64,000 nt of DNA, taken from the NCBI RefSeq assembly GCF_035594765.1, contig NC_085843.1, positions 59,256,201-59,320,200 on the forward strand. Direction: 5' to 3'. This DNA is from Anolis carolinensis (lineage: Eukaryota). The notes beneath the pieces are model-generated. The model ran no database searches, was not told the DNA's origin, and saw nothing but the letters and a program-made list of their open reading frames with translations. Of the stretch, positions 1 to 63,366 are shown in pieces; within the stretch, counting starts at the first letter, position 1, and each line of letters begins with the position of its first letter. The translations under genes and the position numbers were made by a program.

Positions 1-84
1 CGATTGGGGATCGAAAGTTACAATTCCCTTTGCTAGACAGATAGTTCCCCACACTTTTCAAGGTCCATGTGATGAGATCCTATG

Positions 85-165
85 TCAGGCACCCATGTGG
101 ACTATTTTGGATTTTGGGGTATTTCAGATTTCAGAATTCCAGATAAAAAATACTCCAATTCTATG
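85..165. mobile_element. Tigger/MER46-like (Tc1/mariner-pogo) terminal fragment
   Basis: ggattttggggtatttcagatttcagaattccagataaaaaatactc matches the terminus at about 18890-18937 and resembles Tigger4/MER46 ends. Confidence 0.45.
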
Positions 166-346
166 TAGCATTTCCAGCAGATTTTTTAAATCCACTGTCA
201 AACTTGACACCATTGACTATCAGTTGAAATAAATTTTGGAACCTGCAGGTCTCGAAGAACCAAGTAGATGTCAGCATCTTTTTTTTTTACAGAAAAATGC
301 TCAGTGCAACAATAGCTCTATTCAGGTGTTCTTTATACGGCTATAG

Positions 347-480
347 CAGAATCATAAAATCATAGAAAGGACCCAAAGAGTGATCCTTGCCATGCAGACA
401 TATGCACATAATGTATTCCTGACAGACATCCATGAAGAACCTGAGTTTACACAACTCCAATGAGTCCACCATCCTCTAAG
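347..480 (-). mobile_element. CR1 LINE 3' end fragment
   Basis: agaatcataaaatcataga is the reverse complement of the CR1 (ATTCTRTG)n tail, followed by CR1-like 3' sequence. Confidence 0.55.
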
Positions 481-545
481 GCAGTTGTTCTCAACCTGTG
501 GGTCCCCAGATGTTTTGGCCTTCAACTCCCAGAAATCCTAACAGC
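481..545. mobile_element. hAT MITE half
   Basis: cagttgttctcaacctg terminus plus ttcaactcccagaaatcctaacagc, shared with the MITEs at 37075 and 42873. Confidence 0.6.
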
Positions 546-1355
546 TTGAGGTTTTTCTTGAACAGAGTGTGGATGCTCAAGATCAAATTCCTGAAAGAGG
601 CCCATAACAGTCTTTCTCTGAGAATCTGTTTTCTGAGGATGATTTGTCAAGTGCAGAATTTAATGAGCTTGAAGATAGAAAACAATACTTTAGTAAATTA
701 AGAGAGCGTTCCGAGGTTCGTCAAAGGTCAGCCTGTCTACAGGGGAAAAAAGGAGAACAAATCCTTACCTGGCTGTAAAGTGAAACAGAATGTGTTATTT
801 TTCATTGCATGATACAGGGAAGGCTTTATAAGACAGAAAGGAATTATTGTAGCTCAGTTTGGTCAACGTTGAATACTCATGAGGATCTTGTTCCCAAGTC
901 TTTTTTCCAAGTGGATTTCTAGTTTCATGATTCCAGAACTGCCAAGTTCTTATTCTGGGTTTTGGATCCCTATGCTGCCTTGCACTTTTGGATTTTGCAA
1001 CCTTGTTTCTTGTGTTTTTGTCTTTATACCTTGAAGTATCTACACAAACAACAAGATGGTCTATTTACAAAGAAAATATAATGTCCAAATAGCATATAGT
1101 ATTATTAAAGTTTCCCGTATAAAGCTCAATTCGGTAGTACCAGACAAAATGAAAAGGAGCAACAGCTCTAACACAAAAGTTATCTAAGTCTGATATTGGC
1201 TCCAATGTATATACGCTTCAGGGATACATAATCAATACAAATATCTTCCAAACAAAGTAAACAGACAGTTGGTCATGTTGCTGTATACAGAATGAAGAAA
1301 ATAATGATGGAGCACCGCTCTCAAGAAAGTCTTCGCAAGTAAAGTCCAAATAAAG

Positions 1356-1435
1356 TCCCAAGTAAAGTCTACAGGGGTTCCCGCGTATTTTTGTACCCTG
1401 TTTCGGGGAAAAAAATCCCCTTCTTCAGGAGTTGG
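1356..1435 (-). ncRNA. Type I hammerhead ribozyme motif
   Basis: Minus strand reads CUGAAGA (1428-1422), stem II GGGGA/UCCCC, GAAA (1404-1401), stem III ACAGGG/CCCUGU, GUA cleavage triplet (1372-1370), and imperfect stem I AACUC/GACUU. Confidence 0.8.
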
Positions 1436-1795
1436 TATAATCAGCAACAATGAACTTATATCTAAAACAAAACGTAGAGTAACAAGTATTTTACGAGCAG
1501 TATTAACAGAAGTAAAGGTAACCCATATAACTGTTGTATACTTACATAGTGCCTAATTGCTTACAAGAAGTGACTCTGCTTGTGGTGATTTCAACTGCGA
1601 GTGATTCTGAAGGTTCATTCAAAGGTTTATAAAGAGTACTTGGTAACTTAAAGGAAACAGCTAAAATTAAGTGTTTAATTAAGTCCCTGAGAGGAAAAGG
1701 TTTTAAACTTAGAGATCCAGTACATTTCCCTTTGGGATAATAGTTTTTCCAAGTCCATATAAGGTTTTTGAGTAATGCATTCCAGAGCACAAAAA

Positions 1796-3112
1796 TTAAT
1801 ATGAGGTAGATGAATGTTTGTTTTGTCTGAAGTGTGAATATAGAAGAGACACTGTAGATAAATTTTTGATTCTGGATTTATATTCAGAGATTCTGATTCT
1901 CAAGGGTTTGGTTGTCTTTCTGATATACCAGAGATCACAATCACATGTCAAGAGGTAGATTACATTACTGCTATTACAAGTAGAAAAATGTTTTAGTGTG
2001 GTGCCCACTTTGTTCCTATGATTATATATCTCCTTAGTCTTCCAAGATTGAGGACAACACTTACAGTGACAACAGGGGTAATGGCCTCTCAGGGTGCTCT
2101 TCGGTGTACTAATGGGAGTGATTAAATCTGTATGGATTAAAAATTCTCTAATATTTTTGGTACGTCTGTTTGCAAAAATAGGTAATTTATCGCAACCTGA
2201 AATATCTTGAAGATGATGCCAGTGCTTTTTTATAATTTGGATTATGTGTTCGGAATAATGAGTTAATTCTTGTGTCCAGATAATTTGATTTTTTGAAGGT
2301 TTAGAAGATTATTTCAGTAGGGTGGTTCTATCAGTTTTTTCGGCTTTAATTAATGCTTTTTTAAATGACATCTTTAGGATAGCCTCTATTTCTAAACTCC
2401 TGGCTTAAAGTAAGACTTTAATGAATGAAGTGTTCATTAGAGGTTGAGTTACGTTTTAGTCTGAGTAGTTGTGAGAATGGAAGATTGGTCTTTAAACCAA
2501 AGTGGTGGAAGCTGTTATAATGAATAAAAGAATTTTTATCTGAGGGTTTTCTGAAGTTCTTGACCAAAAGTTTTTTATGATATTTATATACAGTAGCATC
2601 CATAAAATTGATATGTGACAGGTTGAGATGACTGGTAAACTTTATGGATGTATGTATAGTGTTAATCCAATTAGAAAATTCTACTGCGGCCTCAGTTGTT
2701 TTAAATACCATGAATATGTCATCAATAAATTGGCCATAATATATTATATTGGCATAGTACATATTTAAAGATGGATTTAGCAATATAGTACTTTCTAGAT
2801 TTGCCATAAATAAATTGGCAACAGAGGAGGCCAACGGACTTCCCATTGCCACACCAAAGACCTGAAAGTAGAATTGATTTTGAAAACGGAAATATTTTTT
2901 CTCCAGTACTATGTCTAATAGGTCCATCAAGAAATGTGTGGGTGGTTGTAACTTGGTTCTACTACAAAGGATATTCTCTATGATGGTACGGGGCTCATCT
3001 AATGGAATGTTAGTGTAGAGTGAGGTGACGTCAATAGTAACTAAAATGCTATCCTCCTAAATTTTAAGATTTTCTACAATGTTAATGAAGTGCTTTGTGT
3101 CTTTAATAAAGG
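1796..3112 (-). pseudogene. PLE reverse transcriptase / GIY-YIG endonuclease, with stops and frameshifts
   Basis: Consecutive minus-strand ORF fragments with PLE motifs (FIKDTKHF, DVTSLYTNIP, GVAMGS, FIDD, GIY-YIG). Confidence 0.85.
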
Positions 3113-3855
3113 TTGCACTTTTGGATTTTGCAACCTTGTTTCTTGTGCTTTTGTCTTTATACCTTGAAGTTCATAGACGATTTGTTACCTATTAAAGATA
3201 CCGTTTTCAGACTATACTGTTTGCATCATCTTTATGGTTTGCATCTTTTTTATTGCTTGCCTCTCATATAATCTTCAATAAACTGCTTGCTGGTTATACT
3301 GGTGTGGTGTTTAAAGTCAGAGGTGTTTCTGCACTGAGATACAACAACTGCATTACATGAGGCTACACTGACCTTATAATAAAGTTTGAAACTGCATGAT
3401 ATGGTACATCAGGTCTAAAGCAAGCCATTCCACTATCTAATGACTCTTAATATAAGGAAGTTATTTCCAATGGCTTGTGTCTAAGAGGTTGTCTACACCA
3501 GCAATTCAGAGTATGCTGTCCTGGAGCTCCCCCTTTAGAGTATTCACTGACTTTGTGCAATGAGTTATTAACCATGGAAGTCACCAAATGCTGTGGGAAC
3601 AGCCAGTAGTGGATTTAAAGTGAGTCTGAGTTTTTTAATGTAACCTTGCCCTAGAGCTATGGATTACATTACAGCTCAGACATGGTTCTGGAGGTGAGGA
3701 GATGTTGTAGCCACTTTGTTCAATATCTCTCTGCATTTTAGAAAAAAATAACTGAAGATGGTAAATTCATCAAACAATTTTGATTGTGGAGCATCACAAG
3801 ACAGCACAAGTAGGCCTTCCAACTGGTGGTTTTCACTGGTATAGTTTTCTCAGAC

Positions 3856-4002
3856 TTGATCTACACTGCCATATAATCCAGTTTCAAAATGCAGATTACC
3901 TGCTTTGAACTGGATTACATGAGTCTACACTGCCATATAATTAAGTTCAATGCAGTAAAACTACATTCAGAAACTGCATTATATGACAGTGTAGATGGGG
4001 CC
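3856..4002. mobile_element. PIF/Harbinger-like palindromic MITE
   Basis: atctacactgccatataat...attatatgacagtgtagat inverted ends; same family as 63222-63358. Confidence 0.7.
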
Positions 4003-5402
4003 TCTGGGGACTTTTTACTTGAGACCTAATTCAATAGAAAACATAATCTCAAATAGCTTTGCTGTTAATTAGCTCAGACATTGATAAAACATTCCCATTA
4101 GAGCCTCATAACATTTTAATTGTTGGAATGGAACTTAATATATCCTAACTCAATGAGCATGTGTTAAGTCCCTTAGCCTCTGCACATTTTAGTAGGTCCC
4201 AGAAAAAACATCTGGCACAATTTGGAAAGATTTTGCTTCATTAAAATATGTTAGTTTGGTTTTAAAAAGCAAACTACCATTTTCTTGGATGCACATGAAC
4301 ACAGAGATCTCTTAAGTGCCACCTCCTCCTTTGTAAAAGTTGCATTCTTAAAAGAGTAAGTGGTGGTGATTTTTTATTTCATTAGCATCATAGATGAATC
4401 CACGGTGTCATGAGATCTGAATTGGTTGATGTTTAGAAAGCTAAAACAAGAATCATATTTTAGCAAATTGAATCAAAACCACGCACAGAGAAATAAGATT
4501 GCTGAATAGTGTTCATAATGATAGTAATTTGTTTCAGAGTTAAGAGTTTCTGTTTTGGCAGAGTGTAGGTCTGAGGAGTTAAAGGGACAAAAATGTTGAA
4601 AGAAAATTCATCAGGTTTTTTTTTTCTATCTGTACAATTTAGACTGAAATAGTTAGGGTAGACAATAGTGTTCTATTGTCTGAAGCTTTAAATTTTAGTA
4701 CTACCCCTTTCCATGTCTATTCAGAAGTAAGATTTTGTGTTTTCGACATAGCTATTCTAGAATAAAGTCCCATTGGATTCATTTTCTGCTAATTGAGAAT
4801 ACAATTGAAGCTTTAAGGAAGTAGCCAGAAGCTGCTGATAGGATGATGTCTTGTTTCTTTCAATTCTGTATAGATATTTGCCACCTTTGGGGTGGTGAAT
4901 GTAATTTAAAAGGTATGATATAAATATGTGGAATAGAAATCACTAAATAAATATGTGCCTTTCATTCATTTGTGACTCCAACACTGTGAGCTTTCTGTGC
5001 TGCAAAATACTGCACTTCAGTTGGCACTGGGTGATATGAAATCCTGTGGTAATAAGTTTGTGATAGCTCATCATCATAGGCAATGCATCTCTTGACACTA
5101 TGGTTACTGAATGTCAAAACTGCATGTAAGAACTAGCCCCATGTTCATTTCAGTTCCTTTCTGAACTTTTAGGCTGCTTCTTGGATCAAGACTGAACACA
5201 CCTGTCTGTAAACACATTAGACAAAATTGAAAAATATGTATAATGTAGTCTGTGACTCCAGAGTAAGCCTTATAGACTGCATAACCACCAATTAGTTTGC
5301 CCTGCTATAGAATCACTCATTAAATGCATCCCTGCTTGAATGAGTAGCAAGATTTCATTGAAATCACTTTCTTTGGACATAAATAAAAATCTGAATTTTT
5401 AA

Positions 5403-5638
5403 TGTGTCAGAAGCGACTTGAGAACATACTGCAAGTCGCTTCTGGTGTGAGATAATTAGCCGTCTACAGAGACGTTGCCCAGGGGATGCCTCGATGTGTT
5501 ACCATCCTGCTGGGAGGCTTCTCTCATATTCCCGAAAGCTAGAGCTGACAGAGAGGAGCTCACCCCCATTTCATGGATTCAAACCAGTAACCTTCAAGTC
5601 AGCAGTCCAAGAGTTTAACCCATTGTGCTACCAGGGCT
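5403..5638 (-). mobile_element. tRNA-derived SINE with a 3' stem-loop (Vingi-like tail)
   Basis: Minus-strand head with A-box-like tggtagcacaatgg and B-box-like ggtttgaatcc; 3' hairpin cagaagcgacttg...caagtcgcttctg. Confidence 0.7.
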
Positions 5639-6149
5639 AAATTCATTTTATATTTCATTTTATTTTATATAATTTCATTTTATCTATTTTATATGAATAA
5701 AAGTGTGCCATTGTGCCCATTTCTCCCATTGTATTAATACTACATGGATACTTTATTGTTGAGGAAGTACAATTTCAAGATGCAAAGGGCAGATCCTGAG
5801 GGTATAATAGAAGGGATGTTTCTGAGGGTTAAGTGCAAAGACTATTTCTCTAGAAATCAAACACTGAACTTTGTTCTACATATGCTGCATTTTACATATT
5901 CACCCTATGAAACATCAGAACATGAAAGCACAGTGAGAGAACATTTTATATGTGAAAGGAAGCAATGGAACATGAATATCACAGAATTCTCTAAAAGCAG
6001 CATTCTTCTTCAATGTCACTGAATTCTGTACAATTCAGTCTTCAGTGCCTTATCTACATATGGCCTACTTGATGCAATTTTATATATTAGTCACAATGCA
6101 ACTTATTGAGTAATCCAAATCTGTAGTCATCTAGATGGTGACGAAGTTA

Positions 6150-6210
6150 ATTTATTAATTTATTTCCGATATTTCTACCCCACCCTTCTCCCCAAGGGGA
6201 CTCAGGACGA
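6150..6210 (-). mobile_element. L2 / L2-tailed SINE 3' tail fragment
   Basis: cccttctccccaaggggactcagg, reverse-complement match to the L2 tail at 31285-31330. Confidence 0.55.
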
Positions 6211-7006
6211 AGTCCCCTTGGGGAGTGGAGATGTATCTAGTAGCAAGGAAAAAGGAGGCCTGGACATATTTGACCCAAAGGTTCCAGTATAGATTCAGAA
6301 AGTTCTTCTTTCTGTACTTTTTCTCTGCAAGTGCACCAGCACGAAGCCCTGCAACTACACCAAACCTTGCCTGAACCTTCTTCATAAAAACTGATGGAGT
6401 CTGGGGGAGGGATGGGGAGAGGAAAGGGGATAAAAAACTCCAGCAAGAAAACCAACTCCACAGCCCAGTCTGCTTTTGGAAATTGTTATCTTTTTTTACT
6501 TAACCTTTCTTTACGCAGAATTTCTTAGTAACATACCATATGTACTATTAGTTTTCTCTGCAAGGGTAATTGTATAACTTTTAAACAATGCAGACTCAAC
6601 CCAGCTAACAATTTTTTTTATTTTTTTTATAAATGAGTTTTTATTGATTTTGCAAATAAAAAAAATTTACAGTGACGGTGTGTGCACGATAAATTATAAG
6701 AACAAAGGGGGAAGAAATACAATGATGAAGCGAAAAGAAGAGAAGAAGAAAGGTGAAGCAAAAAAAAGGGGGAAAGTAATAGGAACATATAATAAAACAT
6801 ATAAACAAAAACACAAAACAAAAACATGTGTAGTAATAAAATTTAACAGAGTGACTTCCATCTCTTACACAACTACTTTAAGAGGTTTGTATTTGTACCT
6901 CTTTTTCCTTTCTTTTTCTTTCCTTCTTTCTGTTTGGTGACCACATCTTCTTATATCTTTCTATTAATATACAGGTCTTTTATATAGTTTATTTAAATAA
7001 TACAAA

Positions 7007-10000
7007 TTATATTAGCACCTTCATTTGCATTTCTAACAAGTACTTTTTAACCGGTTCCCAATTGGTTTGTTTTTTTGGAATACTGTAATTATTTTTTAAT
7101 AAGTATGTTAGTTTGTCCATGTTCATTATTTCCATGATCTTAATTAACCAACAATCTAGTTCCGGAATTTCTTTCTTTTTCCAATATTTGGCATATATAA
7201 TTCTAGCCGCCGTGGTGAGGTAATTGAAGAGCATTTCTTTGTTTTTATTATTTTCAATATTAAGCATTCCCAGGAGGAAGTATTTTGGGTCTAAGTCTAT
7301 TTTAATTTGCAACATCTTTTGTATTGCCTGGTGGATTTCTTTCCAATATTTCTTTGCTTTTTTGCAAGTCCACCAACAGTGGAAGAACGTTCCAATTTGA
7401 TCTTCACATTTCCAACACTTGTTTGAACTTTTTTTGTAATATTTTGATATTTTTTGGGGGGTCAGATACCAACGGTAAAACATTTTGATCCAATTTTCTT
7501 TCAATTCTGTTGCGTATGTTATTTTTAATCTGGAGTTCCAGGCCTTTTCCCACTCTTCTAAATAGATTTTTTTGCCCAGATTTTTGGCCCATTCAACCAT
7601 ACTATCTTTTACTGGTACCGTTTCTGTCTCCCATTCTATTAATTTTGTATATATCTTAGATATTTGTTTTCTTTCTAATTTCATCACTCTCTCCCAAAAA
7701 CCTTCTGATTCTTCAAAACCCAATTTTTTGTCTTTGTTATAGTATTCTTTTAATTGTCTATATTGGTACCATCCTACATTACCGAATTTCTGGTTAATCT
7801 CTTCTTGGCTTTTCATGTTGTATGTCCCGTTTTCTTTAATTAATATATCCTTATATCTCGGCCAAATATCTCCTCCCGTTTCTCTCCTCTGGCCTGCTTC
7901 TAATGGGGAGATCCATTTTGGAGTTTTCTGATATAGTTTCTTTTTGTATTTCTCCCATATTTTTATCAGCGATGATCTAATAAAGTGGTTGCCAAAATAT
8001 TTTTCTGTTAATTTCCGATCGTACCATAGGTATCCATGCCATCCCGCCCTTAAGTCTATTCCTTCTAACGCTAAAATTTTAGTGTTTCCCAATGTAGACC
8101 AATCTTTCACCCAATTTAGACCACTTGCATCATGGTAAAGTTGGAGGTCTGGAAGGCCCAGACCTCCTCTCTTCTTCTCGTCTATTAGGTAAATCCTTTT
8201 AATTCTCGGTTTTTTCCCCATCCAAATGAATTTGCTTATTTCTTTATTCCAATTTTTAAATTTCTGGGTGTTTCTAATAATTGGTATATTTTGGAATAGA
8301 AATAGTAATTTGGGCAAGATAGACATTTTTATTGCTGAGATCCTTCCTAACAACGATAGTTTTGCATACTTCCATCTTTCTAAATCCTTTTGTATTTCTT
8401 TCCATTTATGGTCATAGTTATTTTCTAATAATTGTGAATTTTTTGCCGTTAATGTTATTCCTAGATATTTTATTTTCTTCCTAATCTGAATCCCAGAAAT
8501 TCTCATTAGCTCCTTTTGTCTTTTTTCCGTCATGTTTTTTGATAGTAATGCGGTCTTGTCCATGTTTATCTTTAAGCCCGATTTTTCTCCAAATTCTCTT
8601 ATTTTAGAGAGCCAAAGGTGAATTGTGTTTATTGGGTCTTCTATTACACAGATAAGATCATCCGCAAAGGCCCTTAACTTATAATTGTGCCTTCTTATTT
8701 TTACACCTTTTAAGTTGGGATCTTCTCTAATATTGTTTAATAAGATCTCCAATGAGAAAATGAACAACAGTGGAGACAACGGGCATCCTTGTCTGGTTCC
8801 TTTGCTTATTTTGAAAGGTTTGGATTCTTCGGAATTTATTTTAATTTTGGCTTCTTGATTGTTATAAATTTGATTAATTGCGTTTGTAAATTTGTAACCC
8901 ATATCCAATTCTTTAATTAGTAGTTTTAAAAAATCCCAATTTAGGTTGTCGAAAGCTTTTTCCATATCGATGGTAAGGAGAGCCAATTCATCTTTCTTAG
9001 AAAATTCATAGTATTCTATTATATTTATAATTTCTCTTACGTTGTCTTTCATTTGTCTTTTTGGTAGAAAGCCCGTTTGCTCCTCTCCTATCCATTCTTT
9101 CAGGAATTCTTTCAATCTTTCAGCCAATATGCTCGTGAAGATTTTATAATCTGTATTTAACAGGGAGATTGGCCTGTAATTTTTAACATTTTTGGAGTCG
9201 TGTCCTTCCTTTGGGATCATTGTTATTATTGCCTGGCACCAGGATTCTGGAATTTTTTGGTTGTCTAAAACTTTATTCATAACTTTTTTAAGGTATGGTG
9301 TGACTTCCTCCGTAAATACTTTATAGTATGTCCCACTAAATCCATCCAGCCCTGGGGCTTTGTTCCCATCCATCTTATTTATTGCCACTTTAATTTCCTT
9401 CTCTGTTATTTCCTTGATTAGTAACTCTCTATGTTTTTCGGATAATTTTGCCAATTTTTGTTTACTGATAAATTGAGATATTTCATCTTCTCCAATCTGA
9501 TCTTTAGTGTATAGTTTGGCATAAAAGTTTTGGAATTGTGCCATTATTCCCTGTTCTGTTGTATGTTTTATTCCTTCTGAAATGATTTCCGTAATTGTAT
9601 GAGCTTGTTTTTTTTCCCTAATTTTCCAGGCTAGCCATTTGCCTGGCTTATTGGCATTCTGAAATTGTTGCTGCTTTATAAATTTTAATTTTTTTGCTGT
9701 CTCCTCTAATTCTTCGTTTATTTTTTGATTTCTCAGGCTTTCCAAAATTTTTTTGATTTTTTTGTTGTTTGGGTCCAGTTTTAGATTTTTCTCATTTATT
9801 TTAATTTCCTCATTAATCTTACTTATAGTTTTATTTTTCAATTTGTTTTTTTGGGCATTTTGCTGAATAAAATGACCTCGCATGACCGCCTTACTTGCAT
9901 CCCAAATTGTTTGAACTGAGGTTTCCACTACGTCGTTCAATTCAAAGTATTCCTTCAATTTTTTTTTATTTTTTTGGATATCCTCCTCAGATTTTATTAA

Positions 10001-10731
10001 GTTCTCATTTAGTTTCCAGAATGACTTCCTTTGTTTCTCGTTAATCGTAAATTCTACCGGACAGTGATCCGAGATGTTCCTAGGGACAATTTTTATTTTG
10101 GACACTTTGAGAATCAATGGAGGGGTCATCCAGACCAAATCTATTCTCGACCAAGAATTGTGTCTATTAGAAAAGTAGGTGAAATCTTTTTCTTCCTCAT
10201 GGAGAATTCTCCAGGTATCTTTAAGTTCCCAATCTTGTAGTGTTTTGATGAAATTAATTGCCAATTTGCCTGAATTTGAAGTACCTGTCCTATCCTTATC
10301 CGGATCTGGAACTCCATTAAAGTCACCCATAATCATCAAGTCATCAAATTCTTGTTCTTCTATTTTACTTTTTAGTTTTTCCAAAAAAATTGTTTTTGAC
10401 CCGTTTGGCGCGTAGATGTTGCAAATTAATGTTATCTGATTGTGTACCTTTATCTTTACTCCTATCATTCTTCCCTCATCATCCTTGAAAGCTAATTCTG
10501 GCTCAAATTTTGGATTTATATATAATACAACACCTTTTTTTCCGAGGCAGCTGATACAAATTCTTTCCCTAGTTTTTCCTGAGTTAAATGTGCTATATGT
10601 CTATGGCAAATGTGGGTTTCCTGGAGTGCTATTAAATCAAATCTCTGTTTTTGCAATTGTTTGAATAGAATTTTCCTTTTATTAGGTGTGGTCAACCCGT
10701 TAACATTATTGGAGTGACATTTTATTTGCAT
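7007..10731 (-). pseudogene. L1 ORF2 (APE endonuclease, RT, CCHC) with one frameshift at 10535-10541
   Basis: 10516-10731 encodes the EN start (NNVNG, LQETH). 7007-10468 continues in another frame with NIYAPN, GDFN, RIDL, SDH, KGTRQGCPLSP, FADD and CWKC...HCWWTC. Confidence 0.93.
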
Positions 10732-10734
10732 ATT

Positions 10735-11694
10735 TTAGTGTTGGGTGACTTCTTCTTCTTCTTCTAAGTTAATCAAATTGGGGGTTTGTGATATAGTTAC
10801 TTTGTCGCTTTTTTCGGGGGAGATAGTTCTGGCTCTTTTTCTGTCTCTTTCCGTTGCTGGTTCTGATGTGGTTGGTGCGTTTTCCTTTTTCATTAGGTTC
10901 TTGTAAAAGTCCTTTGCTTTCTCTTCCGATGTTATCCACACCTTTTCTTGATTGTATGTGGCCATAATACCCTCTCTTCTTTCCCACCGGAATCTTACGT
11001 GTCGTCTTTTTAGTTCCTCTGTGAGGAACAGGTATTTTTTGCGTTTCTGCATTGTACTTGCCGGATGTTCTTTTAGTATTGTCACTTTCTGGCCTTTATA
11101 GTGAATGGTGTTCTTTTTGCTCGTTTTCAATACTTCCTCTCTTATTTTCCTTCTTTCGAATTGTACTACCACATCTCTCGGTACTTGGTTTTTCCTGGAA
11201 AAGTCGGTAGTTACTCTGTAGGCTTTTTCAATCCAATCATCCATTTCTTCGTCTTGCACCTGGAGGAGATCTGCTAGGATTTGGGTTGTGATTTGTCTGA
11301 GATTTTCTTTGGGTTCTTCTATGACGTTTCTTATTCTTATCTGATATTCTAATTCTTTTCTCTCCAAGTTTTCTTGTCTTTCTTCGAGTCTAGTATTTTT
11401 AATTTCTAGTTTTTCCACTCTAGTTTGGAGTTTTTCTTGATTTTTCTCCATCTTTTGCTTCTCTTCCTTGACTTCTTTCATCTCTTTTTGTAGATCTTTT
11501 ATCTCTCTCTTCACCTCTGTGAATTCTTCTGATAGCTCTTTCCTCATATCTATCATTTGCTCTTGAAGTAATTTTTGGTTATCTGTAATTTTTTGAAGTT
11601 CCCTCATCACGTCCCTTAAATTTATTTCCTCTGTCAAAGATCCTTTTCTCCCCGTAGTCTTTTTTTCTTCTAGCTTCAGTTTTTGCGACGACAT
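10735..11694 (-). CDS. L1 ORF1p (coiled coil plus RRM/CTD), 319 aa, intact
   Basis: Uninterrupted ORF with heptad-rich N-terminus and IRIRNV, EKAYRV, PRDVVV motifs typical of L1 ORF1; directly upstream of ORF2. Confidence 0.92.
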   Translation of the reverse strand: MSSQKLKLEEKKTTGRKGSLTEEINLRDVMRELQKITDNQKLLQEQMIDMRKELSEEFTEVKREIKDLQKEMKEVKEEKQKMEKNQEKLQTRVEKLEIKNTRLEERQENLERKELEYQIRIRNVIEEPKENLRQITTQILADLLQVQDEEMDDWIEKAYRVTTDFSRKNQVPRDVVVQFERRKIREEVLKTSKKNTIHYKGQKVTILKEHPASTMQKRKKYLFLTEELKRRHVRFRWERREGIMATYNQEKVWITSEEKAKDFYKNLMKKENAPTTSEPATERDRKRARTISPEKSDKVTISQTPNLINLEEEEEVTQH

Positions 11695-13525
11695 TTTTTC
11701 TCTCTTTAAATTCTTTAAATTTTTCTAGATACTATAATGAAAGTTTGTTATGATACAAGGGTTTGTCCGTTCTTTCACCTGGATAATGGACCAAATATTC
11801 AAATATTCAAAATATTATATCTATATACAATCAATTTAACTTATATATAAATCAATTAATAAGAGAGGTGAAAATAATTCTAATGTATAATTTTTTTTTA
11901 GATTTAACAATAATTTCCTTTTTTCACACTCCCTTGAATGGTTGTTTGTTTGTAAATTTGTTCTTTATCTTTCTTTCTATGTCTTTTTACCCCCCCCCCC
12001 CAGGTGTAATTAATCACTGAACTAAATTGATGGAATACTTTTAGATATATTTCTACAATAAAGGTCCGTGTACTTCCTTTTATATTGAAGTTATAACATG
12101 CTATTGTATGACCTACCCTTCCAGTACTTCCCTCTAATTAGTCAAATTCGGTAAATTAATCAAATTAATCAATTAATCAAATTAAATCAATTAATCAAAT
12201 TAAATAAATTGATTTTCCCAATGTCCACATTTACTAGTTGTTATCTCCTCTCAAATCCTTCTTTCCCCGCCTGGTTATCCTCATCCTAGTCTGCAGTCTA
12301 TCCGCTGCTCTTCTCTTACTCCTTGTGGTTGCTTGTCTTCTTCTTATCCAGCTATCTATCCCCTCGTCCTTTTGTCACCTCTCCACTCGTCTGCTTCTCG
12401 TCCTCGTCTCTCCTAATGTCTCCCTGTCCCACTGTCTCCACGTCTGCTTCTCGTCCTCGTCCTTCTCGTCACGCCCAGTGTCTCTCTGTATCCCTGTCTC
12501 CACGTCTACTTCTCGTCCTCGTCCTTCAAGCCCCACGCGTCCTCTCCGCGATCTTCCCCTCTTACCGTCTACTTCTTGTCCTCGTCACGCCGCCCGCTAC
12601 AATCTGTTGGTCCAGGCTTCACTGGTCTCCAATCGCCTCCGTCCTTACACTCCATGGATTAAACCTCCTTATACTCTCTCCGTCCCTTTTTCCACTCCAA
12701 TCTCTGGGTGTGTTTCTTCCTTATTGTCTGTTTTAGTCTGTTTAGTCCTCCACTCTCCTCACCCTCTTCTTGCCGGAACTTCTCTTCCCTGTCCTCTTGT
12801 TTTTCTTTACTTCTCTTTGTTCCTCCTTCCGTTTGTCTCTCCTTCTGCTTTCCACGCCTCCTTCACTCCCATCCGGGTCTCCTGAGCTCCCTGTGACGTC
12901 AGACTCGTCAGATTCGTTAGACAAAACAGTGCCTTTCAAGGACGATGCCTATCTCTCCTTTTCACCCAGGCTTGGCATCCATCCAGCAATGGCGAATCAA
13001 ATGTGGAACGGAATATTTTAAGTGAATAAATGATGAAGGTTCGCCTTCCTTATCTGTTATTCTTGCCTTTCCTTTCCTTCACCTCGCCCTCCCGAGATTA
13101 TACGAAGGTAATTACCTTATTTGTCACCGTCTTCCGCTTTCTTTTCTTTTCTTTTCTCTTTCTGCTGGCCGTGAGCTATGGTAGCTATGTTTCGATCCGC
13201 TCTTCAATTACTGGATTTTGTTATGAATTACTTTCTTTGAGTTTTCTTGGAGGTATGGCTAGACGTCTGTTACGGACATCTATGTCCTCTCAGCTCTCCT
13301 GACCTGCTGCCACTGCCCGTCGCCGTCTTCCGTCTCTCAGCCAACCTCCTTGAGGGAGATCAGCGTCAAGATTCGCGGTTGGGGTCTCCGTGGGTTCGCT
13401 GCCTCACAGGACTCAATCCGCCTGTGGGGGGGGGGGGCGAAAAAGCTGCCCTGCCTGGTCTTTGTAGAGCTTGGTGGCCGCGAGCTCCGCGGTCACTCAA
13501 CCAGACGCCATGCTTCCATACCCGG
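11695..13525 (-). promoter_or_regulatory. L1 5' UTR / internal promoter (about 1.8 kb)
   Basis: Lies between the TSD and the ORF1 ATG; CpG-rich start and YY1-like AAGCATGGCG at 13515-13506. Confidence 0.75.
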
Positions 13526-13834
13526 AACAATTTTTTGTTTGAATGTGAATAAGTTAACTTAGATACTTAGAAATTGAGAGTTTTTAAATTATACTTATTT
13601 GTATTTGCAAACAATGTTTTTATATTTATTTTTTTACCTTTTTAGGCTGAACAGAATAACAGAAAATAGTAAATGTTTATATGATTCCCTGCTGATGTGA
13701 TTTAGTTAAAGACTCTTCCCATTGTTTGAATTATTCTATTGTAAACTAATTTTTTTTGGATTTCCTGGTTCTTCATACCTATTGTAATTAGTGCTGATAA
13801 AGCAAATTTATGATGAGAATGAATTAATGAGACT

Positions 13835-13910
13835 ATATTTCTATCCTGCTCTATCTCCCCAGTGGGGGGACTCAGGGAGACTTACAACATATAAAGAGGC
13901 AAACATTATA
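13835..13910 (-). mobile_element. L2-tailed SINE 3' fragment
   Basis: ctatctccccagtggggggactcaggg...aggcaaacatt, as at 42610-42675. Confidence 0.55.
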
Positions 13911-13929
13911 TATACAGTGTGTGTGTGTG

Positions 13930-15300
13930 TGTATATAATGTAATGTGCATTTTTCCCATAAACAACAAAATCACTGAACCAAATTGCATCAAATCTGGCC
14001 ACAAAAGAAAAATAAAGTCCAAATAACAGAGGACGAGGAAGAGACATTCTCCCCCTGACTGCCAGTTAGAAGGGTAATAATAATAATAATAATAATAATA
14101 ATTATTATTATTATTATTATTTTTGTACCCCGCCACCATCTCCCCAGAGGGACTCGGGGCGGCTCACAGATATATAACCAGCATACAGTGACATCAAATA
14201 CAAATATCAAATACGAAAACACACAAAGAAATTTAAAAGGCATTAAAAAAATCACAATCATTATAAAACACATGAAAAACAGCAATAAAAACATTAAAAA
14301 CATAAAATGATCTGGGCAAAGTGCACTGAGTGAAACTTGTAAACAAGAAGGAAGTTAAGGGTAGGCCCCATCCCCTTTAGGCCTCACTCACTTCGTGTCC
14401 TAGCACTCCCTTAGCCACAATGGCTGTGGGTTCACTTAGGCCTCTTCCACACTGCCTATAAAATACAGATTATCTGATTTGAACTGGATTATATGGCAGT
14501 GTAGATTCAAGGCCCTTCCACACAGTTATATAACCCAGAATGCCAAGGCAGATAATCCACAGTATCTGCTTTGAACTGGATTATCTTGAGTCCACACCGC
14601 CATATAATCCAGTTCAATGTGGGTTGTGTAGAAGGGGCGTCATATAATCAAGTTCAAAGCAAATAATATAAGATTATAAATATAATATATACAAATTACT
14701 GTGGTATAATAAAACAGAACAATATAATCTCTAAAATCAGGACAGTGAAATAAACAACCACACTCTGAAAATGGGAATTCCAGACAGGAAACAATCAGGG
14801 CCAGCTAACATCTCCCAACAAAGAATTCCCCCAAGGAAGAAGCAGAGGGGAGAGAAAAGTAGTGTGTATTATCAGAGTTGTTGTTGTTGTTGTTGTTGTT
14901 GTTGTTATTATTATTGTGTTGCTGTGAACCATGAAAATGAACACAATCTGGCTCCAAGTATAAAAAAAACTCTAAAATCAGAACAGTAAATAAAGAACAA
15001 CACACTGTAAACAGGGGAATTCCAGACAGGAAATAATCAGGGCCAGCTAACACCTCCCATCAAAAGATTCCCCCAGGGAGGAAGCAGACAGACTTTGAAG
15101 CTGAAAGGCCATTACATGCTAATCATTCTGGCTAATTGCAGCATTCATACTTCCTTCCAACAGAAAAAAGGAACAACCAGAAATATTGTATATTCACAAG
15201 CTTTAGGAAATACTATATACTAACTACCATCAATTCCTCAATATTTTATATCCCATACCACCACACATTGCCATAGCAGCATGTGGCTGGGCACAGCTAG
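13930..15300 (+). mobile_element. Non-autonomous Helitron with captured TE fragments (5' boundary approximate)
   Basis: 3' signature: imperfect hairpin gccatagcagcatgtggc (15270-15287), then CTAG (15297-15300) followed by T; mosaic interior. Confidence 0.65.
14076..14305 (-). mobile_element. L2 3' end with (TAA)n/(TTA)n tail, nested in the Helitron
   Basis: ccccgccaccatctccccagagggactcggggcggctcaca next to the microsatellite. Confidence 0.65.
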
Positions 15301-15466
15301 TGCCATATAAAAATGCAACATTGCATAAACCTAAAGATATAACCCAATTCTGTTTCAGTAATACTGCACTGAAAAGCATTTCTGTGGCTTATTTCTTATT
15401 CATAATTTTTTGGAATTGATAAATAGCAATTTGTGTTGTGATTTGGGCAGGGATATTCTCATCATT

Positions 15467-15785
15467 GGAACCCCGGTGGCTCAGTGTGTTAAAGCGCTGA
15501 GCTGCTGAACTTGCAGACTGAAAGGTCCCAGGTTCAAATTCGGGGAGTGGAGTGAGCGCCCACTGTTAAGCTCCAGCTTCTGCCAACCTAGCAGTTTGAA
15601 AACATGCAAATGTGTGTAGATCAATAGGTGGGAAGGTAACAGCATTCCATGCAGTCATGCCAGCCACATGACCTTGGAAGTGTCTACGGACAATGCCAGC
15701 TTTGGCTTAGAAATGGAGATGAGCACCAACCCCCAGAGTCGGGCACGACTGGACTTAACGTCATGGGAAACCTTTACCTTTTACC
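15467..15785 (+). mobile_element. Sauria SINE
   Basis: tRNA-like head (ggtggctcagtg, ggttcaaat), body gccaacctagcagtt, (ACCTTT) tail; TSD tattctcatcatt/tattctcataatt. Confidence 0.92.
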
Positions 15786-15849
15786 TATTCTCATAATTAC
15801 AATATTGTAATTAATTCAAAATTGTAAAATAGTATTCTGCATATATTAA

Positions 15850-16101
15850 GTGAGAGGGTCTTTTCAATGACTGTCCCAAGTTTCTGGAACTCCTTTTCCA
15901 GGGAAGCCAGAATGGCCCTCTCCTTGTTTTTCTGTGGACAGGAAAAGCCTTTCTAAAAAACAACTCAACAGAAGTTTTGTACTAAAGGTTTTGAAGGAAA
16001 AACCTTCAGATTTGCTGTATCATTTTTATTGAACTGTTTTTAATTACTTTTTCATCGTATTTAGCTGTAGATCTTGAATGTTTCTAATGTGGCTATTTTA
16101 A
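15850..16101 (+). mobile_element. Degenerate L2 3' fragment running into the gap
   Basis: gagagggtcttttcaatgactgtccc...tggaactcc resembles the L2 end at 30955-31060. Confidence 0.5.
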
Positions 16102-62821: not shown

Positions 62822-63221
62822 GGGAAGTAAGTACTTTGATATTTATCATGGATCGTTTTCCCTTTATACAATTTAATTCAACACAGAAGACCTACTCAGG
62901 AGTTATAATAACAATAAGAATAAAATGATTAGGAGAAGGCTTTTTTTTTTTTAAAAAAAAGAGTTATTATCATGGTATACATTTTACTCTCCTGCTGTGG
63001 AAAAGGCTTTCTGAAGAGGGGATTGTCCTTTGTGTAGAGACTGTACACATGATTCCAGATACTGGAAATGTAGCATTCCTGAATGTGAAGAGATCTTTTG
63101 GGCACAGAGAAAGCTATCCTGTTCAGAAAACTGTTCTGCAATGGGAATATGCAAGGAAGAGTGAGACCTATGTGATCATGTTTATAACTAAGATGGATTT
63201 CTAACATCAGAATAGGGCTAA

Positions 63222-63358
63222 GGCCCCATCTACACTGCCATATAATGCAGATTAAATGCATCAGACTGGATTATATGAGTCTACACTGCCATATAAAGCA
63301 ATTCAATGTAGTTTAACTGCATTCTGAAACTGCATTATATGGCAGTGTACATAGGGCC
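63222..63358. mobile_element. PIF/Harbinger-like MITE
   Basis: TIRs ggccccatctacactgccatataatgcag / ctgcattatatggcagtgtacatagggcc with TAA/TTA flanks. Confidence 0.8.
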
Positions 63359-63366
63359 TTAATTTA

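Follow-up and report, generated by a model that had tools for sequence, protein, structure and literature searches.

Hammerhead ribozymes with a palindromic arm III in the repeats of Penelope elements (PLEs), and a model in which two of them act as a dimer, have been published (PMC4209133), whilst the role of PLE hammerheads and the origin of their dimer dependence are described as an open question (PMC8557442, PMC11167929). The window analysed here, a stretch of 64,000 nt from the genome of Anolis carolinensis, carries a hammerhead motif with a long, fully paired stem III, which an earlier note on this DNA thought able to fold and cleave as a monomer. Does a ribozyme with such a stem III cut on its own, or does it depend on the pairing of two motifs?

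The motif lies on the minus strand (Table 1), and its sequence and core nucleotides, as well as the predicted cut that the hammerhead consensus sets, are exactly where the earlier note had placed them, with UA at 1371-1370 and 1369 as the first base past the cut. It has the core of a type I hammerhead (CUGANGA, GAAA and UH), with three helices around this core, an open end in stem I, and covariation. The stem III previously given as 6 bp is indeed paired and long, but it consists of five Watson-Crick pairs plus the core A15.1-U16.1 pair; similarly, the proposed pairing of stem I begins with two contiguous pairs but then runs into a C.C mismatch. Past the cut come the tandem GACTTT units already noticed, four in number and starting at 1369, 1357, 1346 and 1331, and in the subfamily of the window copy a 5-nt duplication directly follows the predicted cut. 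With minimal PLE hammerheads the window copy shares the extra nucleotide after position 9 and a G10.1-C11.1 pair (G-U at 10.1/11.1 in four of the 19 representatives of related families described below), but not their helix III, which is absent or of 1-2 bp, as against 5 bp here and 4-8 in the sister families. The palindrome in arm III, another mark of the minimal form, is present in the family and its clade, and only 4 nt of it (CGCG) are found in the window copy. In the youngest subfamily (L042-L054, L085-L088), G10.1-U11.1 replaces G-C and the upper stem III reads GUC/GAC, as against GUAC/GAAC in older copies, with one-sided intermediates in existence. Loop II and distal stem I, which are relevant to the canonical tertiary contact between loops I and II, vary among families; a pairing of the loop II U's with the A's of loop III was considered and dropped, since loop II is not conserved.

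Table 1. Positions in the window of the hammerhead motif, its parts and the element that carries it.
Feature	Positions	Strand	Remarks
Type I hammerhead motif with long stem III	1358..1435	minus	kept in the family and sister families
Stem I, 5' strand	1429..1435	minus	2 contiguous pairs, then C.C mismatch
Core CUGAAGA (C3-A9)	1422..1428	minus	extra A next, at 1421
Stem II, 5 bp, with loop of 6 U	1405..1420	minus	1420-1416 pairs with 1409-1405; pair probability 0.99
Core GAAA (G12-A15.1)	1401..1404	minus	
Stem III with 19-nt loop III	1372..1400	minus	CAGGG 1400-1396 pairs with CCCUG 1376-1372
Position of loop III palindrome	1380..1385	minus	CCCGGG in the family, CGCGGG in the window copy
U16.1-A17 and predicted cut 1370/1369	1369..1371	minus	hammerhead consensus
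Stem I, 3' strand, and four GACTTT units	1326..1369	minus	unit spacing 12, 11, 15
3' pseudo-LTR	1034..1647	minus	3' end of the family maps to about 1034 in many copies
Broken, 5'-truncated RT, CX2CX2C linker and GIY-YIG endonuclease (Neptune-type PLE)	1648..3112	minus	
84-nt GT-AG spliceosomal intron of the pseudo-LTR	1462..1545	minus	ends 26 nt before stem I
58-bp direct repeat, copy 1	980..1037	plus	like a target-site duplication
58-bp direct repeat, copy 2	3113..3170	plus	57/58 identical to copy 1

The comparison with Rfam that the earlier note had envisaged did not bear it out: none of the hammerhead models matched at E<=1 across 1-6000, and no Rfam family of any kind did so at E<=10 across 1300-1500. 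The unconstrained fold of 1340-1450 was unremarkable as well (z -0.83) and differed from the hammerhead, so that the case for a hammerhead is built on the core motif and on covariation. The motif is not a chance match; a core pattern that took no account of pairing or of what the loops contain had 622 matches in the source genome, a count in which some places recur and of which 100 matches were listed, as against 18 for the reversed pattern.

The ribozyme sits about 220 nt past the end of the protein frame, inside the 3' pseudo-LTR of a 5'-truncated element that spans 1038-3112 on the minus strand and whose frame is full of stops. This copy is dead, as had been said of the element, but the family is alive: elsewhere in the genome there are tandem repeats of its 3,575-bp unit with intact open frames of 753 aa, and the 25-mer directly after the cut has 247 exact matches. 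The closest named proteins are from Anolis (98%). In the family, a reverse transcriptase (RT) is followed by a C-terminal GIY-YIG endonuclease with a CCHH motif, the combination by which the Neptune clade is defined (PMC8557442); the linker between RT and endonuclease holds a CX2-5CxxC zinc finger, a trait common to Nematis, and the pseudo-LTRs occur in tandem and inverted arrangement. The family also groups, with an SH-aLRT of 99 in a quick full-protein tree that included no Nematis sequence, with P0008, a protein of 50% identity to it which is Neptune-1_Ac over the endonuclease stretch printed in the supplement of PMC8557442. Membership of the Neptune clade of PLEs is therefore supported, by trees free of Nematis sequences, and the earlier placing of a type I hammerhead in a Neptune-type PLE holds good on the core, the RT and GIY-YIG features and this grouping.

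Several other features of the element and its surroundings deserve mention. The intron of the pseudo-LTR is precisely absent from 14 of 93 genomic copy contexts. Contigs of uncertain kind mapped on the window include a CT..AC joint at 1461-1546; they show no end peaks, and canonical host splice joints are lacking from the rows listed for 1-16000. The direct repeats flanking the element measure 58 bp, which would be long for a target-site duplication. In intact copies, an upstream frame of 254 aa from stop to stop overlaps the RT frame in the -1 register, where seven T in a row precede C(C)AAG (L085, 3501-3438 minus; L092, minus-strand offsets 1353-1399), and the same arrangement is seen in the Neptune-1_Ac family, at 50% protein identity. 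This overlap is a candidate for a programmed -1 frameshift, or else for a splice acceptor; a literature search turned up no paper with the word 'slippery'. Further along the window, a short inverted-repeat element at 3859-3996, with more copies near 14460-14620 and 63220-63360, gave weak matches to miRNA models, below the gathering score, and depth points to a SINE-like high-copy repeat at about 5400-5640, which we take to be a squamate SINE.

The long stem III is a trait of many families and not of this copy alone. Relatives were collected by endonuclease searches of the source genome, with 40 further diverged loci fetched and the sequence past each frame read, and in most families having a recognisable core GAAA leads into a stem III that has 4-8 pairs and carries a long loop. 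A search descriptor set to three or more stem III pairs yielded 171 distinct contexts in 30 clusters. The most intact copy per cluster was then taken, and 19 long-stem representatives were kept, leaving out three minimal clusters, two fragments of the window's family, five single damaged copies and one likely chance match, a selection that favours intact motifs. When these are anchored on the core, stem III pairs 15.2-15.5 hold in 19/19 (the first three pairs being required by the filter), with swaps between A-U, U-A and G-U at 15.3, and between G-C and A-U at 15.4 and again at 15.5. In a structure-blind MAFFT alignment 93% of 158 cells pair, compared to 19-55% in slid-partner controls, and two-sided changes affect four of the eight pairs. 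The conservation of the long stem III with covariation across copies, a check that the earlier note had proposed, is thus borne out, among families whose endonucleases are 41-78% identical (median 52%). C3, G5, A6, G8, A9, A13-A15, U16.1 and the first pairs of stem I are all invariant or covarying.

Three sister families, Neptune-1_Ac included, have a minimal GAAA-CCGG-UC and group together as a clade (99.1/98); the rest are the long-stem families, weakly supported as monophyletic (75.9/79) and left unresolved by the quick full-protein tree. Because Fig. S3 of PMC4209133 shows minimal motifs in vertebrate PLEs, we infer that the long form is the derived one, having arisen by insertion around an ancestral CCGG palindrome. 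Two oddities occur among these families. A local duplication of the CUGAAGA segment in L184-L186 gives two possible 5' strands for the core, and a multi-copy family (L177, L179, L189, L194, L198) has the core CCCGAGGA, with U4C, and a stem II of about two pairs, yet keeps stem III and the palindrome.

This palindrome, a 6-nt CCCGGG in loop III of the family, had been missed by the earlier note. Core and CCCGGG together have 419 matches in the genome, against none in the reversed control, and CCCGGG is present at 68 of the 80 parsed sites of the window's family. It is also the commonest hexamer in eight of the ten long-stem clusters with at least three copies (in one of them at 3/6), the remaining two being one with CCTAGG and one without a settled hexamer. 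The forms expected from single CpG decay, CCTGGG and CCCAGG, are common in individual dead copies (7 of the 80 parsed sites of the window's family) and are the commonest hexamer in none of the ten clusters. In the CCTAGG family, where 16 of 20 copies read CCTAGG (CCUAGG in the RNA) and none CCCGGG, both central bases have changed and self-complementarity is kept. In essence this compensatory change happened once, and the presence of CCTAGG in three single copies of other families means that double decay is possible after insertion. Other palindromes of the W-W type gave 57 matches against 109 in the control; CCTAGG is the only one that matches real motifs, and those matches are confined to the one family plus single copies. 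The CpG at 11.1/12 serves as a small control; it has decayed to TG in the majority of two of the ten clusters, too few to be significant alone. A 6-nt loop palindrome is found in 18 of the 19 representatives, which are related and hand-picked, compared to 4-28% of loop shuffles, and the two leading C's of the hexamer stand in 20/20 and 19/20 alignment rows. In the window copy the palindrome is broken, reading CGCGGG. A scan of metagenomes for core plus CCCGGG gave 120 stretches, eight of them with a partial stem fit and none beside a PLE protein, which were judged to be chance.

That the palindrome, a known mark of dimeric PLE hammerheads, is kept across the clade suggests a dimer, be it a double hammerhead or a kissing loop, rather than a free monomer. 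On balance we lean towards the reading that loop III pairing of two motifs, possibly into a double hammerhead, gates a cleavage that releases unit-length RNA. In a tandem transcript (unit 3,575 bp) the hammerheads of successive pseudo-LTRs would meet via the palindrome, the first contact being loop to loop; the stem III strands could then swap to form the double hammerhead, and cleavage after GUA would release the unit-length RNA, probably slowly or with the help of the element's protein. Folding energies were predicted with a model that ignores the tertiary contacts of the core and refers to a 1 M standard state. By these, the isolated stem III domain would form a homodimer through exchange of strands between the two stems and pairing of the palindromes, and in the family representatives the double hammerhead is predicted to lie 9.2-15.1 kcal/mol below two active monomers. 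The predicted gain amounts to 12.3 kcal/mol in an intact copy from the subfamily group to which the window copy belongs, and to 6.7 in the window copy itself, which, judged by its sequence, is likely a poor cutter because one palindrome pair is lost and stem I is weak. Several points speak against the dimer reading. Any hairpin can swap strands, and shuffled loops gain too, by 4.2-7.4 kcal/mol on average, with 2-62 of 300 shuffles reaching the observed value; and the blind consensus fold described below has the last four palindrome bases paired with the core CCUG, a pairing that CCUAGG would also fit. In addition, the predicted minimum is never an active form, the gaps being 1.6-15.6 kcal/mol to the monomer and 3.2-31.8 kcal/mol to the double hammerhead.

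A bolder version of this reading, which we put forward only tentatively and with more doubt than trust, is that a clade of lizard Neptune elements moved the dimer palindrome of the minimal hammerhead onto a purine-flanked loop with a stable stem, fusing a kissing-loop signal to a ribozyme. RNA pairing would then be the selected function, outlasting the integrity of the core in some families, and it would either gate cleavage or serve the template jumps that build tandem and inverted insertions. The dimerisation initiation site of retroviruses is likewise a purine-flanked six-base palindrome in a hairpin loop; it is not part of any ribozyme, and the analogy is drawn without a claim of homology.

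The rival that survives best is that the long stem III makes the ribozyme a self-sufficient monomer, like the hammerheads of fungal and protist PLEs, the palindrome being a leftover or merely tethering two independently active ribozymes. Energetically, stem III, at a predicted -2.2 to -8.8 kcal/mol for the isolated domain, may be stable enough alone for no dimer to be needed, and in some families the predicted gap to the active monomer is just 1.6-4.1 kcal/mol. The swaps seen in the first four pairs of stem III across the 19 representatives fit this rival too, with the reservation about the filter already made. It has moreover been reported that a fungal PLE hammerhead having a large helix III cuts as a monomer (1.97 per min with 10 mM Mg2+) and that a longer helix III gives single metazoan motifs some cleavage (PMC4209133). 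We still regard this rival as unlikely. A leftover hexamer containing a CpG should not outlast about 50% protein divergence whilst the remainder of the loop turns over, and the monomer of the window copy is predicted to form stem III with a probability of 0.00, since the 5' strand of that stem would pair with the core CCUG instead; its active fold is predicted to lie 9.4 kcal/mol above the free minimum. These values, along with the clade-wide palindrome, go against the earlier proposal that this motif folds and cuts as a monomer, and efficient monomer cleavage of a host transcript by the window copy is unlikely.

The genome itself also argues against a freely cutting monomer. Since reverse transcription begins some 330 nt downstream, copies made from a cut template would be short, with their ends at the cut. 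The first 100 of the 247 listed matches to the 25-mer supplied 90 distinct sites; of these, 85 continue further upstream, two are internally rearranged near the cut, and in three the junction falls no more than 5 nt from where the pattern starts, in each case with microhomology across the cut. Three 5' ends at the cut site, where an estimated background gives about 1.2, do not make a significant peak among the 90, and at least 85 of the copies run through the site. The templates were mostly uncut or re-ligated, in agreement with the report that unprocessed RNA is the main substrate of Poseidon (PMC11167929). As a separate matter, in about 11 of the 90 copies the 5' junction falls 39-56 nt upstream from the 25-mer, within or beside stem II and loop II, and across the family junctions are denser near stem II (about 1400-1425 in window positions) than elsewhere; this cluster is possibly a pause or template-switch site of the RT. 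One locus (L438, G000:C3:68536268-68536422) holds a 130-nt head-to-tail duplication with its junction at the predicted cut site.

Mostly uncut templates would equally suit the view that the hammerhead scaffold is mainly an RNA dimerisation signal for a retrotransposon particle, with catalysis weak or dispensable. Other observations fit it as well: core position 4 is A in 19/19 and 4/4 copies of two long-stem clusters and C in 7/7 of a third, U4C is reported to reduce activity in vitro considerably (PMC3088659), stem II is down to about two pairs in several families in which the palindrome is retained, and the insertion of Anolis Poseidon in vitro is described as needing no cleavage (PMC11167929). 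Nevertheless, the constancy or covariation of C3, G5, A6, G8, A9, A13-A15, U16.1 and the first pairs of stem I is what selection for cleavage would give, and U4A, occurring also in a minimal sister family (9/9), is not tied to the long form; we consider the view improbable.

Slightly less credible still is that the hexamer works as an intramolecular off-switch, its last four bases CGGG pairing with the core CCUG to keep the ribozyme inactive until remodelled, or as a protein-binding site, for although a blind RNAalifold consensus has this pairing as its sole helix (alignment columns 12-15 with 59-62) and CCUAGG retains these pairs, which U4C would strengthen, the covariation term is -0.01, the two leading C's are left unexplained, the U4A families break the pairing and yet retain CCCGGG, and fixed CCCAGG, which would pair better and arises readily, should be found in some family and was found in none.

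Loop III pairing between two motifs, the reading we retain, is not without precedent, since dimer cleavage and a palindromic stem or loop III are on record both in repeat-type hammerheads and in those of PLEs (PMC3088659, Fig. S8 legend; PMC4209133). In the minimal metazoan PLE hammerheads (Cervera and De la Pena 2014, PMC4209133), arm III reaches about 2-3 pairs at the longest, with a 4-nt palindromic loop, among the 56 representatives of Fig. S3, whereas the long-stem clade has 4-8 pairs, a loop of about 14-21 nt and a palindrome embedded off-centre. Neptune-1_Ac (Craig et al. 2021, PMC8557442) resembles the window's family in its CX2CX2C linker, its CCHH endonuclease and its 50% identity, but has the minimal GAAA-CCGG-UC with U4A (20/20 loci) in place of the long form. 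The hammerheads of endonuclease-less fungal and protist PLEs are, like those of the clade, of type I with a stable helix III; they belong, however, to other PLE clades and kingdoms and are described as active monomers, with no loop III palindrome mentioned in the text of PMC4209133 covered here. For repeat hammerheads of the Aedes type (Perreault et al. 2011, PMC3088659) an intermolecular pairing of loop III has been proposed as well, but in that case pairing takes in the whole loop and makes a 10-bp stem, whereas the Neptune dimer would have two asymmetric internal loops or be a kissing complex. Finally, Poseidon (PAc) of Anolis carolinensis (Frangieh et al. 2024, PMC11167929) is likewise an anole PLE with a hammerhead, reported to be cleaved only with protein present, and with unprocessed RNA as its main template; it differs in belonging to the Penelope/Poseidon clade, in overlapping the start codon and in that the description given there covers stems I and II only.

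What appears to be new is the clade-wide long stem III with a conserved loop palindrome; PLE hammerheads, a palindromic arm III and long-helix monomers are known. The listings and passages of the literature covered contained no long stem III with an embedded loop palindrome; Lunse et al. 2017 reportedly also deals with the minimal type I hammerheads of metazoan PLE pseudo-LTRs. As the Rfam models miss the motif, similar ribozymes may be undercounted in vertebrate genomes.

The interest of these results lies in the design common to the clade, the single dead copy in the window being of little weight. Dimer dependence could be seen as a by-product of a tiny stem III, and this clade separates the two, because its stem III is stable and the palindrome is still kept. 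The CCCGGG and CCUAGG families form a natural pair for cross-pairing, with the sister clade as the minimal control. If dimers are confirmed, RNA pairing itself would be under selection in these elements.
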